Positions 53,550-64,000 are shown, counted from the first letter of the stretch. The stretch: DNA of 64,000 nt from an uncultured Clostridia bacterium (GCA_947627105.1 CANQUT010000003.1:2144-66143); one strand, 5' to 3'. Notes: generated from the letters alone by a model not told the origin. Program-made: numbers and translations.

Positions 53550-53587
53550 GTGATAAAATAATCTGGAGTGATAAATTAGTGATAATT
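53550..53587 (+). repeat. three direct GTGATAA(A/T) repeats upstream of the recombinase gene
   Basis: gtgataaaa (53550), gtgataaat (53568) and gtgataatt (53579). Confidence 0.65.
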
Positions 53588-53639
53588 TTCGCTGTAAATT
53601 GTTTCCATTTTTATGTACTAATTAAGGGGGTATTTTTTT

Positions 53640-54779
53640 ATGGCAAATAAAACCAATTTTTCTGTAAATGGAAAGAAATATTATAGAATTACTAAAACAA
53701 TTGGAAGGAGATCTGATGGCACTCCTATAAGAAAATCGTTCTATGGCTATGGAATTAAAGAAGCTAAGCAAAAAGCTGATAAGTATATGAACAATTTAAA
53801 AGCTGGTTTAATAATAAATAATGGCAAAATTTTGACAATTAATATTTTATTACCTAAATGGTTGTTTCAAGTAAAAAAAATCGAACTGAAGTCATCCTCG
53901 CTTCAATCTTACGAAAGTATATATAGGAACTATGTTAAGAATAATTTAATCTCTGATTTACCCATAAATGAAATTAAAAGTTTAAAGGTTCAAGAATACT
54001 ATAATGAGCTTGTTAAAAAAGGTGTTACTATTAGTAATATTAAAAAAATACATAAACTTCTAAGACAGTTTTTTCGCTATGCTGATAGAGAAGGCTATGT
54101 TATAAAAAATCCTTGTGCAAATATTACTTTGCCTAAAGCAAAAAAGGAAAATGCCCAGGTTATTATTCAAAATAAAAAAGCAAATTTTTCATATTTTAAT
54201 GAAGAAGAAATTAAGGTTTTAAAGCAAGCATTTAAAAACAATAGATATGAAAGCGTAGTATTATTTGCCCTTGGTACTGGTATGAGGCAAGGAGAAATAT
54301 TAGGTCTTCAATGGGATGACATAGACTTTGAAAATAGAGAAATTCACGTTTTGCATAACCTTAATACTTCTGCAGATATTTCAGAAAATGGTGAAAGATT
54401 TTACCAAACTTTATTGCAAGAGCCTAAAACAGAAAATTCAATAAGAATAATACCTATGGCAAATTCTATATATAATTTATTGAAAAGACTCCCCCACATT
54501 TCTAATTTTGTGTTTTGCAGAAAAGATGGCAGGTATATTGATGCTAAACATTTACAAAGAGTTTGGAGAAGAATTTTGAAAAGTAAAAATATTACATATA
54601 GGAAATTTCATGACCTAAGGCATACTTTTGCAACAATGCTTTTGACCCATGGCGCGGACTTAATAACTGTTAAAGAATTATTAGGCCATAGTAGTATAAA
54701 AATTACTGAAATTTACCTTGATGCTTTGCCTAAAACTAAGACAGAAATTATACATAAAATAGATTTTTTACTAAAATAA
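53640..54779 (+). CDS. tyrosine site-specific recombinase (phage-integrase family) with N-terminal arm-type DNA-binding domain
   Basis: 379 aa. The catalytic residues are R (GTGMRQGEILGLQW), HxxR (HDLRHTFAT), H (LLGHSS) and Y (TEIYLD). The N-terminus NFSVNGKKYYRITKTIGRRSDGTPIRKSFYGYG resembles Tn916/phage Int arm-binding domains. Confidence 0.9.
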   Translation: MANKTNFSVNGKKYYRITKTIGRRSDGTPIRKSFYGYGIKEAKQKADKYMNNLKAGLIINNGKILTINILLPKWLFQVKKIELKSSSLQSYESIYRNYVKNNLISDLPINEIKSLKVQEYYNELVKKGVTISNIKKIHKLLRQFFRYADREGYVIKNPCANITLPKAKKENAQVIIQNKKANFSYFNEEEIKVLKQAFKNNRYESVVLFALGTGMRQGEILGLQWDDIDFENREIHVLHNLNTSADISENGERFYQTLLQEPKTENSIRIIPMANSIYNLLKRLPHISNFVFCRKDGRYIDAKHLQRVWRRILKSKNITYRKFHDLRHTFATMLLTHGADLITVKELLGHSSIKITEIYLDALPKTKTEIIHKIDFLLK

Positions 54780-54782
54780 GAA

Positions 54783-61745: not shown

Positions 61746-62336
61746 TTATAATAACACCTCCAAATAGTCATGAATTTCTTTTTCAATTCCTAGCTTTTTA
61801 GCATATTTCATAATTTTAAAAGAATCGCTTTTCATATCTTTAAAGTAAATATTAAAGGCTTCTTTTATATATTCAGATGCAATTAAATGCTTATCTTTTA
61901 AACAATCACATAAACATCTTTCTATATCATATACGTTAACTTCTTGACCTTGTGGAGTTTTAATTTTTGTTTTCCCTAAATTTAACAAACTTTTATCTAC
62001 TTTATGTAATAAAACTTTTTTATCTTTATTTAGAACTCCATAGTATCTTTTATCAACGGTAATATCATAAATCATAGGAACTCTATTGCAAATATGATGA
62101 AAATACAGAGCTGTCATATGTGAATATATGGCATTTTTTCCATATATTTTATTAAAGTATTCATCACCTAATGTTGATGGAAGAATATAAATACCTTTTT
62201 TTGCTCTTTCAATTTGTTTAGTATCTAATAATCTTGAAATAACCTTTTTATCTATTCCCATTTGTTTTATTTCCCTAGCAGTGATTACACCATTATTTTC
62301 TTTCATTCTTAAAAATATTTTTTCACTATTTTTCAT
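61746..62336 (-). CDS. abiEi: AbiEi-family antitoxin/transcriptional regulator (type IV TA)
   Basis: 196 aa. It has an N-terminal wHTH (GVITAREIKQMGIDKKVISRLLDTKQIERAKKGIY) and is paired with the AbiEii gene. Confidence 0.75.
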   Translation of the reverse strand: MKNSEKIFLRMKENNGVITAREIKQMGIDKKVISRLLDTKQIERAKKGIYILPSTLGDEYFNKIYGKNAIYSHMTALYFHHICNRVPMIYDITVDKRYYGVLNKDKKVLLHKVDKSLLNLGKTKIKTPQGQEVNVYDIERCLCDCLKDKHLIASEYIKEAFNIYFKDMKSDSFKIMKYAKKLGIEKEIHDYLEVLL

Positions 62337-62462
62337 TTTTTGTCCCCCTACCGCAAATTATTATAACATATTTTTTGCAAATAGGGGACATTTTTTAAAA
62401 AAATTTAAAATAAACTTTATAATTTTCAATTTTTTCGCCATTTTTCAACACTTTCAGCGATT

Positions 62463-64000
62463 TTGCCAGACCAAGAAGTTCCAACCACTATTTTTGTAAA
62501 TACATTAAATGACTATGATATAGCATTAAGAGCATTATTCCAAGAAAGTAAACTAAATGAAGATGTTTATACAAGACTATCAGAGAAAATTGGAGAAGCT
62601 ATTTCTAATATTAATGCTGCAAGCACAGAAGAACAAGCTAAAGTATTATATGATGATATGGTAGAAGAAATATTAAAGAAAACTTCAGAATCTGTTGCAA
62701 ATGTAGATAAAGCAGCACAATTAGAAAAAATAGCAACAAATGAGAAAACAAAAAGAGAACAAAAACAAAAATTAGCTACAGAAATATTCAATAGATTCAA
62801 AGAATTAGCAGTTGAAGAAGGAGTTTCAAGTGAACTTAATCCACATATTAACGAAGCATTAAAAAATATTGAAAATGCAAAAACAGCTAAAGATGTAGAT
62901 AATGAATTATCTGAATTTAGAAGACTATTAAATGCTGATACATATGGAAACTTAAAAACAAAATTTGATGCTCAAGAAGATTTCTTAACAGCACAAAAAG
63001 ATGCATTAACTGTATTAGATGCATATGAATCAGCTTTAGATGCAATACAAGATTCAAATGTTAAAACAGCAATTGAAAATGCATTAAAATTAGCAAGAGA
63101 AGAAATAATGGCTGCTGATGAAGAAGGAAGAGTAAATCAAGTTGTTGGTGCTTTTGAAAGTCAAGTTGTAGCAGAATATCCAAATGCAAAAAAATCTGTT
63201 GCTAAAAAATTAGTATCTGATGCACTTGCTGAAGCATTACAACAATTAGAAGCATATAAAACAGGAGCATATGCTGAAGAAAAATTAGTACAATTATCAG
63301 CAGGAAAATGGGAAGTTGTTAAACCTGAAAAAACTATTAAACAATTAGCAGATGAAAAAATAGCACTTTTACAAACAATAGCAAACGGACTACTACAGGA
63401 CAGCGCTATAGACACAACAACTTCTAATAAATCATACAAAAAAGTTAATACTGACTTACAAACATATGTTGATAATATTGATGCAGAAATTGAAAAAATA
63501 AAAGACAATATGAGAGAAAATCAAGAAGCATACTTACAAGCATATGAAGAAGCATTAGAAGAATTAGAAATATATGAAGCAAATGCTGAAAAATATGGCT
63601 TAACAGGAGAAGCATTAGAATATGTTAAAACTGAAGTAGTTGCAGTAAAAGCAAAAATAGCTAGTGTAGATACTGAAGGAGAAGTAAATGCAGCAATGGG
63701 TCTATTTAGAAATGGTATAAAACAATATTCTCCAGAATTTGACGCATATCAAGTTACAGAAACAAGAAAAGCAGTAAAAGAAGCATTAGAGGAATATAAA
63801 GAATTAAATGATGCTGATATTAATAACGCAGTCGTTGATGCTGTTGCAGACTTGGAAAAAGCTGGAACAGTAGATGCTATAAAGAAAATAGAAAGAGATG
63901 CAATGGAAGCAATTATAGCAGAGATTAAAGACAACGAACTTGCAAGTGCAAAACTAGAAGCAAGAAAAGAATTTCTTGTATTTATAGAAGAAGAAAATAG
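62463..64000 (+). CDS. surface-protein cassette C (alpha-helical DUF1542/FIVAR-like repeats), promoterless 5' end, open to the right edge of the window
   Basis: This frame is not in the ORF track because it has no stop. It is open from 62409 to 64000 and has no ATG or RBS before site C. It contains repeated ~70-aa helical units (A..A...L..Y......I..AV..A...I..A.T...V). A terminator-like hairpin (gtcccc...ggggac plus T-run) lies just upstream at ~62342-62392. Confidence 0.6.
   Translation, partial: MPDQEVPTTIFVNTLNDYDIALRALFQESKLNEDVYTRLSEKIGEAISNINAASTEEQAKVLYDDMVEEILKKTSESVANVDKAAQLEKIATNEKTKREQKQKLATEIFNRFKELAVEEGVSSELNPHINEALKNIENAKTAKDVDNELSEFRRLLNADTYGNLKTKFDAQEDFLTAQKDALTVLDAYESALDAIQDSNVKTAIENALKLAREEIMAADEEGRVNQVVGAFESQVVAEYPNAKKSVAKKLVSDALAEALQQLEAYKTGAYAEEKLVQLSAGKWEVVKPEKTIKQLADEKIALLQTIANGLLQDSAIDTTTSNKSYKKVNTDLQTYVDNIDAEIEKIKDNMRENQEAYLQAYEEALEELEIYEANAEKYGLTGEALEYVKTEVVAVKAKIASVDTEGEVNAAMGLFRNGIKQYSPEFDAYQVTETRKAVKEALEEYKELNDADINNAVVDAVADLEKAGTVDAIKKIERDAMEAIIAEIKDNELASAKLEARKEFLVFIEEEN
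62467..62481 (+). repeat. putative recombination site C (CAGACCAAGAAGTTC)
   Basis: Perfect 15-nt match to the reverse complement of site B. It lies in frame at the 5' end of cassette C (LPDQEV). Confidence 0.6.

Follow-up and report, generated by a model that had tools for sequence, protein, structure and literature searches.

In Mycoplasma pulmonis, inversions at the vsa locus bring a promoter, a ribosome binding site (RBS) and 714 nt of 5′ coding sequence in front of a silent 3′ part, and the gene for a tyrosine recombinase (HvsR) lies nearby (PMC2268961). Inversions also link silent genes to one promoter at vpma/Xer1 of M. agalactiae and vsp/Mbr of M. bovis, where the blocks between the sites are rearranged in order and orientation with no change in their sequence (PMC2268961). 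PilV and tyrosine recombinases are among the targets or neighbours of gene-altering inversions, and the survey that reports this, which names HsdS, PilV, tail fibres and SusC among others, makes no mention of dockerin, cohesin, sortase or Clostridia (PMC9881135). The locus described here lies in 64,000 nt of DNA from an uncultured Clostridia bacterium (GCA_947627105.1, CANQUT010000003.1:2144-66143; this whole stretch is called the window), where three very long reading frames, cassettes A, B and C, follow a gene for a tyrosine recombinase and open at the same short site. We consider it probable (roughly 0.85) that the window is the storage end of a multi-cassette, site-specific shufflon which changes the ~100-kDa ectodomain displayed by the cell.

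In the R64/IncI shufflon (Rci, pilV), inversions at short asymmetric sites swap C-terminal segments, each a few hundred bp, on the constant N-terminal part of a pilus-tip adhesin encoded on a plasmid. Silent surface-coat genes are swapped by chromosomal inversion in Lactobacillus acidophilus (slpA/slpB) and Campylobacter fetus (sap); these surface (S-) layer switching systems move a promoter or use two genes, and that of C. fetus is RecA-dependent with long conserved 5′ regions. Recombinase-driven ectodomain exchange behind a constant 5′ exon is textbook for wall-less mycoplasmas and for plasmid pili. No case of it in cell-walled gut Firmicutes or in cohesin-dockerin systems, and none with cassettes as large and as diverse in fold as those reported below, is described in the literature searched.

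Cassettes A, B and C (Table 1) show no ATG, no RBS and no signal peptide before the motif that they share, and they are therefore not expressible at their present positions. A and B are paralogues with 36% identity; C is unrelated to either, and its residues 1-511 are predicted from the single sequence to be all-helical (predicted local distance difference test score, pLDDT, 69.9). Pfam and NCBIfam scans returned no family for A, B or C. Beyond 64000 the sequence continues on metagenome contig L001, which is 99.97% identical to the window where the two overlap and reaches through the end of C into the 3′ end of a convergent gene, whose 48-aa tail gave no candidates in a homologue search. A protein record from the window's own 72,504-nt contig identifies this gene as a fourth cassette, D (969 aa), which begins with the short leader MPKPEQEV followed by LDVVKAAAV... 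(the N-terminus being known from the protein record only). With only this short leader D is likewise silent, and its site lies at ~68.5 kb on the - strand. A sequence search of the PDB with B, C and D gave no match.

The sequence CAGACCAAGAAGTTC, with up to two mismatches allowed, is found exactly three times in the 64 kb (54903+, 60663- and 62467+), where shuffled sequences lead one to expect 0.09 matches and none of 100 shuffles reaches three. The three sites alternate in orientation (+, -, +); those of B and C are identical over 15 nt, and those of A and B agree at 17 of 19 nt. When all loci discussed here are taken together, the 14-nt core, AGA(A/C)CAAGAAGTTC, has a single variable position across 17 distinct sites and is read in frame as (E/D)QEV at every one of them (17/17). 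The variable base at position 4 travels with the left flank and the bases past GTTC travel with the body, which places the crossover inside CAAGAAGTTC. A dyad around an asymmetric 7-bp centre, such as that seen at site A, is the usual anatomy of a tyrosine-recombinase core. A preliminary description of this DNA had already reported the recombinase gene, the three frames and their lack of start signals, the shared in-frame site with the identities just given, its alternating orientation, a hairpin before each site, and the relationship of A to B and of both to C; our analysis bears out each of these statements.

The expression site lies on another contig. A cluster search with a further body, X, led to a 922-aa protein (P0160) which has a signal peptide and a dockerin-like domain and continues through ...VIDPMPESDPEQEV directly into RTAWFMNPED.... 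It is encoded on L142 and L143, contigs from the same two samples in which window-type contigs occur, and on both an LPQTG anchor gene stands ahead of it. The gene occupies 986-3754 of L142 and possesses an RBS (GGGAGGA), a GTG start and the signal peptide MNKGKKIISTLALASMLAGNVLPLASYA; a weak promoter-like match lies 18 nt 5′ of the start. Its constant exon, about 560 nt in length, encodes in order a Sec signal peptide, a beta domain and a dockerin-like domain, and ends in ...DPEQEV at the core AGAACAAGAAGTTC. On L142 the gene is preceded by the tail of a sortase gene and by a gene for a 202-aa LPQTG protein with a membrane span and a basic tail, and is followed by a convergent silent cassette (C′), a RelB/YoeB pair and another silent cassette. 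The expressed X fusion is also present on an NCBI contig of 35,979 nt belonging to a metagenome-assembled genome (MAG). A tblastn search of the 64-kb window revealed no sortase, anchor or N-terminal exon. The silent cassettes known so far are A, B, C and D, together with X, C′, a P0007-type cassette and B′ (other contig), each of them without a start signal; this makes at least eight cassettes, with five unrelated body types.

Arrangements were compared among metagenome and MAG contigs with ~3x coverage, between samples or strains, in five independent comparisons. The breakpoint falls inside the 14-nt core in four of the five and within 30 nt of the core in the fifth. One sample (ERZ27249684, contig L012) shows the arrangement of the window. 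In another (ERZ27249386), positions 1-3079 of contig L011 equal 51848-54926 of the window at 100%, after which come cassette D and the convergent tail of C, L011 5808-6364 being identical (100%) to L001 1-557; the body switch falls within 54904-54926. These matches to the left flank of the window and to L001 give L011 the order recombinase-D> <C, and the contig is the exact product of a ~13.6-kb inversion between sites A and D.

The second comparison involves the expression site itself. Contig L010 (ERZ27249389) equals window 53088-54917 at 100%, and the identity stops at the final base of the core, beyond which L010 holds the 751-codon body X and then a convergent C-like cassette. From the first core base onward, L142 1534-6727 is identical to L010 1817-7010 (100% over 5194 nt), and the sequences to the left are unrelated. 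The X/C′ segment consequently follows the expressed exon in two samples, whereas in a third it follows the silent flank on the recombinase side; site A has exchanged with the expression site, moving body X between flanks. Two further comparisons come from other organisms. L009 and L082 represent one species (sortase 99.5% identical, DNA 97.7% over 3134 nt), and their alignment halts at the last core base, the bodies downstream being unrelated. Starting at the site, L144 and L007 show 99.35% identity, and their left flanks are unrelated, a silent one in L144 and the N-terminal exon in L007. In the fifth comparison the AbiEi flank of contig L003 is joined to a D-like body in place of C; its alignment to the window ends at 62481, and its mismatches, six in all, are confined to the 30 nt immediately left of the core.

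These results bear on the remaining proposals of the preliminary description. It had proposed looking for a copy of the site preceded by a promoter, an RBS and a signal peptide, and L142/L143 provide one with an RBS, a GTG start and a signal peptide, ending in ...DPEQEV. It had put the expression site elsewhere, possibly just beyond 64000; the first part was right, since the site is on another contig, and the second was not, since the rest of C and then silent D occupy that position. Its proposal that whole ectodomains are swapped behind a constant N-terminal exon is supported by contigs which exchange at the core and by an exon that consists of signal peptide plus dockerin-like domain. The likeness that it drew to vsa/HvsR and to shufflons finds support in the between-sample exchanges at the sites.

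Might the alternative junctions be chimeric contigs, joined by the assembler through a short repeat? Coverage of ~3x and the fact that L010 and L011 are each one contig from one sample would allow it, but the repeat in question measures 14 nt at L010/L142 and 23 nt at L011, and the final k-mers of SPAdes-type assemblies (default k values) are longer than 14-23 nt. The arrangements moreover recur independently, L142/L143 in two samples and L013-L016 in four; the expressed X fusion is found on the separate NCBI MAG contig; the same breakpoint is seen in unrelated data sets (a Logan run and a rabbit MAG); and several contigs end at the site rather than passing through it. We regard chimerism as exceedingly improbable. 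Among the contigs that end there, L017 (end 7278) and L119 (end 4855) stop exactly at the last base of ...CAAGAAGTTC. Contig ends at the core are typical of assembly breaks at polymorphic junctions, and assemblies of these organisms appear to fragment at recombination sites.

The core changes in concert within a genome. In the MAG Lapin-005__bin59 all four sites (recombinase-side, expression and two silent cassettes) have the variant AGAACAAGATGTTC, and a further species carries AGACCCAGAAGTTC. One and the same change at every site of a genome is expected if the overlap regions must be identical, and is hard to explain by selection at the level of the peptide. The motif AEQEVV in L020 and L092 was considered as a site and rejected: it belongs to a homologous stretch within type II bodies (see below), and in that genome the true sites carry AGAACAAGATGTTC. 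L008 contains a solo core without a cassette (6390-6440), set in a perfect 24-nt inverted repeat (GGAATAAATTACCAAAAAAAGAAC AAGAA GTTCTTTTTTTGGTAATTTATTCC) with left-flank sequence on either side, which may be the footprint of an earlier recombination or deletion.

The enzyme is a tyrosine recombinase. A Pfam scan gave a match to PF00589 (Phage_integrase) with E=1.7e-33 and 116 bits, where the cut-off is 27.1, as well as an N-terminal SAM-like domain (PF14659), and the catalytic set is complete (R216, H324, R327, H350 and Y359). It scores below the dedicated invertase models of NCBIfam (NF007371, 24.6 bits vs 222; NF007370, 21 vs 221), and no curated Xer or invertase family fits it, the best sub-threshold NCBIfam matches being XerC, XerD and XerA. 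Orthologues with 83-98% identity are present in five rabbit-gut Clostridia MAG species, and in all five a core site lies ~130 nt downstream and opens a start-less cassette. Six species keep the chromosomal order rimO-like gene, PGA_cap, recombinase, site, cassette, and this neighbourhood contains no mobile-element genes besides the recombinase. In three of the five orthologue-bearing MAGs a different contig carries an N-terminal exon that ends in the core.

From this linkage we infer that the adjacent recombinase is the probable catalyst. The competing idea is that the shufflon is real and another enzyme drives it, 53640-54779 encoding an unrelated integrase such as a mobile-element remnant. 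The long N-terminal region of the protein is indeed typical of phage and ICE (integrative and conjugative element) integrases, no invertase-family model fits it, and a serine recombinase gene lies near the expression locus of L013, with weak homologues near that of L076 and L077. Against this, the gene keeps its chromosomal synteny in all six species and has no further mobile-element genes nearby; the serine recombinase is absent at the expression loci of L007, L009, L082 and L119; and a dyad with an asymmetric 7-bp centre suits the core of a tyrosine recombinase. We consider it very unlikely that a different enzyme is responsible. The serine recombinase of L013 was itself dropped as a candidate, not being conserved at other expression loci. 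It has 391 aa and is encoded beside the expression locus, at 13785-17327, together with a DUF5305 gene and a signal peptidase S26 gene; these genes adjoin a degenerate sortase remnant in one strain, and are possibly an inserted element.

AGTGATAAWT repeats flank the recombinase gene on both sides. There are four copies in the window, where 0.99 is expected, and their positions (-72/-61 before the gene and +3/+14 past the stop) are kept in six of six orthologous loci; they persist at the same offsets in the window and in L017-L021 where the remaining spacer sequence has diverged. They are candidates for arm-type binding sites or for an autoregulatory operator. The terminator-like hairpin that follows the second pair would isolate cassette A from transcription of the recombinase. 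Just 5′ of the recombinase promoter region sits one copy (53409-53479) of an intergenic repeat family that also occurs at 7808-7937 and 28272-28435; the copies are 74-91% identical, with the palindrome GCTTAAATAGTACTATTTAAGC at the centre, and at Rfam gathering thresholds nothing was called at them. The sole Rfam hit in the window at the gathering threshold is one tRNA gene (38807-38880, - strand). The G+C content is ~28% across the window.

Table 1. Coordinates of the features discussed in the text, in window positions unless a contig is named.
Feature	Position	Strand	Remarks
AGTGATAAWT tandem repeats	53567..53587	+	11-nt period; recombinase promoter region
Tyrosine recombinase	53640..54779	+	379 aa; presumed shufflon enzyme; PF00589, PF14659, catalytic residues
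AGTGATAAAT repeats, second pair	54782..54802	+	straight after recombinase stop codon
Terminator-like hairpin + U-run	54805..54842	+	-15.1 kcal/mol, z = -4.0
Site A	54904..54917	+	core AGAACAAGAAGTTC; dyad TAGAA-CAAGAAG-TTCTA; behind silent recombinase-side flank
Cassette A body	54918..57778	+	type I, beta-rich, promoterless; frame 54845-57778, open from 54845, 977 codons counted from a TTG
Bidirectional terminator between convergent A and B	57834..57868	.	-19.5 kcal/mol, z = -6.0
Cassette B body	57895..60663	-	type I, promoterless; 36% identical to A; frame 57895-60687, 930 codons counted from a TTG
Site B	60664..60677	-	core AGACCAAGAAGTTC
Terminator-like hairpin + U-run	60688..60734	-	5′ of site B, 3′ of AbiE operon; z = -3.6
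AbiEii toxin (60894-61745) and AbiEi antitoxin (61746-62336)	60894..62336	-	spacer between cassette pairs
Hairpin + U-run	62341..62390	+	5′ of site C; -17.4 kcal/mol, z = -3.9
Site C	62468..62481	+	core AGACCAAGAAGTTC
Cassette C body	62482..64000, on to ~65351	+	type III, predicted all-helical; frame opens at 62463, unclosed at window edge; 962 codons in overlap contig L001
Cassette D	~65588-68497	-	silent, convergent with C; beyond window; protein P0011
Toxin-antitoxin or related spacers	L142 6923-7445; L013 353-1095, 4425-4947; L008 4480-7328; L144 3061-4221		
Variant cores	L020 7332; L092 10297, 16276 (-), 19514; L021 3345		

A more conservative account would treat the cassettes as ordinary strain-variable genes, replaced in the past by homologous recombination or acquired by horizontal transfer, with the motif as a homology anchor and no programmed switching. 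Homologous exchange among the cassettes does take place. P0005 (L005 244-2970) is a mosaic, across species, of an N-terminal part like the P0002/P0003/P0006 lineage and a C-terminal part like cassette A of the window, which indicates that cassettes also swap segments by homologous recombination. The six mismatches of L003 within 30 nt beside the site resemble a conversion tract, and the differences in arrangement are known between samples only. Yet the identity at the junctions extends over just 14-23 nt, which is too short for efficient RecA recombination, and flanks that are 100% identical over 1.8-5.2 kb, and so imply negligible divergence time, nevertheless differ in arrangement. Nor would such an account readily accommodate an exact reciprocal-type inversion (L011), start-less cassettes that cannot be expressed in place, a recombinase gene kept 130 nt from the site in six species, or the concerted core change at four of four sites in one genome. 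It seems to us very improbable.

Several features of the locus are those of a shufflon. Short sites occur in both orientations, each 5′ of a promoterless alternative coding segment; a single expression site has a start, a constant N-terminal part and the same core at its end; and alternative arrangements between samples or strains have their breakpoints at the sites. Certain observations nevertheless weigh against our view that the window is the storage end of such a system. All of the rearrangement evidence is between samples, at ~3x coverage, and the strain in ERZ27249389 may differ slightly, L142 and L006 being 99.63% and not 100% identical. X is the only body seen at the expression site of the window's organism; exact look-ups in the protein collection gave none of the predicted fusions of the exon to the A, B, C, D or P0007 bodies, and helical bodies of type C or D are fused to the exon in no organism examined. 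The organism's own exon has a dockerin score (19 bits) under the Pfam cut-off. The expression module and the window lie on separate contigs, the link between them being a deduction of ours; the argument for catalysis by the adjacent recombinase is one of conserved linkage (six species), and in L013 a distance of 4.5 kb separates the serine recombinase from the expression gene. Cassettes, cores and one expression exon are directly observed, as are exchanges at the cores between samples; that switching is ongoing within populations or a clone, and that the two contigs are linked, we infer.

If the window does belong to such a shufflon, the recombinase would pair two oppositely oriented cores, strand exchange within CAAGAAG(TTC) would invert the DNA between them, and the bodies would trade sites, the one behind the first site moving behind the second. 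The secreted protein would then dock by its dockerin on a sortase-anchored cohesin, and the population would vary its exposed surface, for instance in the face of host antibody or phage.

The docking step is suggested by the neighbours of the expression gene. The anchor gene adjoins a sortase gene (PF04203, E=2e-17), and the anchors carry LPQTG or LAQTG motifs. A profile of the N-domains of 11 anchors, compared with the PDB, matched the cohesin of C. perfringens NagJ (2o4e, E=5.5e-7) and cellulosomal cohesins (E=5e-5 to 7e-4), among them those of ScaC and CipA/CipC (E=5e-5 to 5e-4); a Pfam scan of the anchor called no cohesin, and the anchor protein has no exact match in the protein collection. 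The L009 orthologue exceeds the Dockerin_1 (PF00404) cut-off of 22.9 with 34 bits, and L007, L013 and P0160 stay below it with 19-20 bits. The operon of sortase, anchor and dockerin genes is kept in at least 12 MAG species, and equivalent expression genes are found in L007, L009, L013, L082, L092 and L119. Taken together, these comparisons lead us to propose the constant exon as a probable secretion-plus-docking module, with a sortase-anchored cohesin as its likely partner.

In ScaE of Ruminococcus flavefaciens and Sca2 of R. bromii, a small protein that has a cohesin and a C-terminal sortase signal tethers dockerin proteins to the wall (PMC4611034). The anchors described here are similar in having a cohesin-like N-domain, LPQTG and an adjoining sortase gene. 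They differ in their cargo, which would be one giant non-enzymatic protein with an N-terminal dockerin, exchanged by DNA rearrangement. Nothing in the literature searched links cohesin-dockerin pairs to phase variation or shufflons.

Homologues of the type I bodies (A and B) are rare, with seven proteins among 5.8 billion. Two of these are ~180 residues longer, with a signal peptide and a dockerin which lead through ...APEQEV... or ...DPEQEV... into an A/B-like body; the remaining ones start at (E/D)QEV, as do A and B. AlphaFold predicts beta-sandwich domains strung one after another for a full-length type I protein (pLDDT 68.5), and with this model Foldseek returned generic immunoglobulin (Ig)-like domain strings and some S-layer proteins, with TM-scores of 0.2 or less. 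These matches support a beta-sandwich surface protein and nothing more specific. The other body types are unrelated to type I and to one another: type II carries fn3 domains, and types III, IV and V are represented by C, D and X, respectively.

A library-wide profile search with the N-terminal exon revealed dozens of proteins of 1,030-1,200 aa that share only their first ~200 residues, so that across the proteins found the exon is fused to many unrelated bodies of ~900 aa. Proteins P0017-P0087 form a large family of this size in gut Clostridia and Bacilli MAGs, with the N-terminal signal-peptide/dockerin module in common; most have the linker ...IDKLPEKEE... and not PEQEV, and several are encoded beside sortase-cohesin genes.

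The silent cassettes are laid out as convergent pairs with toxin-antitoxin genes in between. In the window this spacer is an AbiE module (PF08843, E=1.1e-32; PF13338, E=2e-7). Across the loci the toxin-antitoxin or related spacer genes are AbiEii/AbiEi, RelB/YoeB, ParE/RelB, NTP_transf_2/HEPN and HipA, and they occur in every species examined. Their recurrence suggests a stabilising role against deletion; one might speculate that the spacers penalise deletions between directly oriented sites. Superintegrons, which also contain toxin-antitoxin cassettes, offer an analogy for such a role.

How do the two contigs fit together? There may be a single array, with the recombinase at one end and the expression exon at the other, each facing inward. 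A simple geometry that fits all contigs, with a colon for each core, begins recombinase> flankA:A> <B: AbiE :C> <D: ... and continues ... :B′> <P0007-type: RelB/YoeB :C′> <X:exon <anchor <sortase. In such an array the expression site could invert with any + site, and inversion with site A would flip the whole array and give L010. Tentatively, and with more doubt than assent, one can go further and read the contigs jointly as the ends of one ~35-45 kb array of at least four convergent pairs, guarded by toxin-antitoxin killing and serving a swappable S-layer-like coat. Inversion of the expression site with an oppositely oriented site would in that event re-deal all cassettes, cells in which deletion between direct sites had removed cassettes would be killed by the toxin-antitoxin modules, and the Ig-like strings and helical stalks would form an exchangeable coat held by cohesin and dockerin, not by S-layer homology (SLH) domains. 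If true, this would mean a swappable cell coat in a widespread uncultured group of gut Clostridia.

Functionally, the system is closest to vsa/HvsR of M. pulmonis, without being a member of that family. It resembles vsa in having a constant exon (here about 560 nt), a site inside the coding frame and start-less cassettes. Unlike vsa, in which the constant part is a lipoprotein N-terminus and the variable parts are tandem-repeat tails, the exon here comprises a Sec signal peptide and a dockerin-like domain, the cassettes have 750-980 codons and five unrelated folds, the host is a cell-walled member of the Clostridia, and toxin-antitoxin genes stand between the cassette pairs. In common with vpma/Xer1 and vsp/Mbr it has a recombinase gene bordering a surface-protein locus of several genes. 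The mycoplasma genes each have a signal sequence of their own, and their site is in the 5′ untranslated region, whereas the junction described here is within the reading frame, behind a shared N-terminal anchoring module. Compared with R64, the cassettes are large (~2.9 kb) and chromosomal, the array is spread over two or more contigs and tens of kb, and the enzyme fits no invertase-family model. The slpA/slpB and sap systems differ from it in turn, since here there are a 14-nt core, what is probably a dedicated recombinase, and at least eight cassettes.

The small core site and its recombinase may also serve for programmable in-frame cassette exchange. For the organisms themselves, the arrangement would explain the many start-less giant orphan genes and the fragmented assemblies in these MAGs. 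It presents a testable case of surface variation, with a defined 14-nt site and a candidate enzyme, in which evasion of phage or antibody is a possible driver. It would be a dedicated, non-cellulosomal, non-enzymatic use of cohesin, dockerin and sortase, as a universal socket for interchangeable surface proteins.

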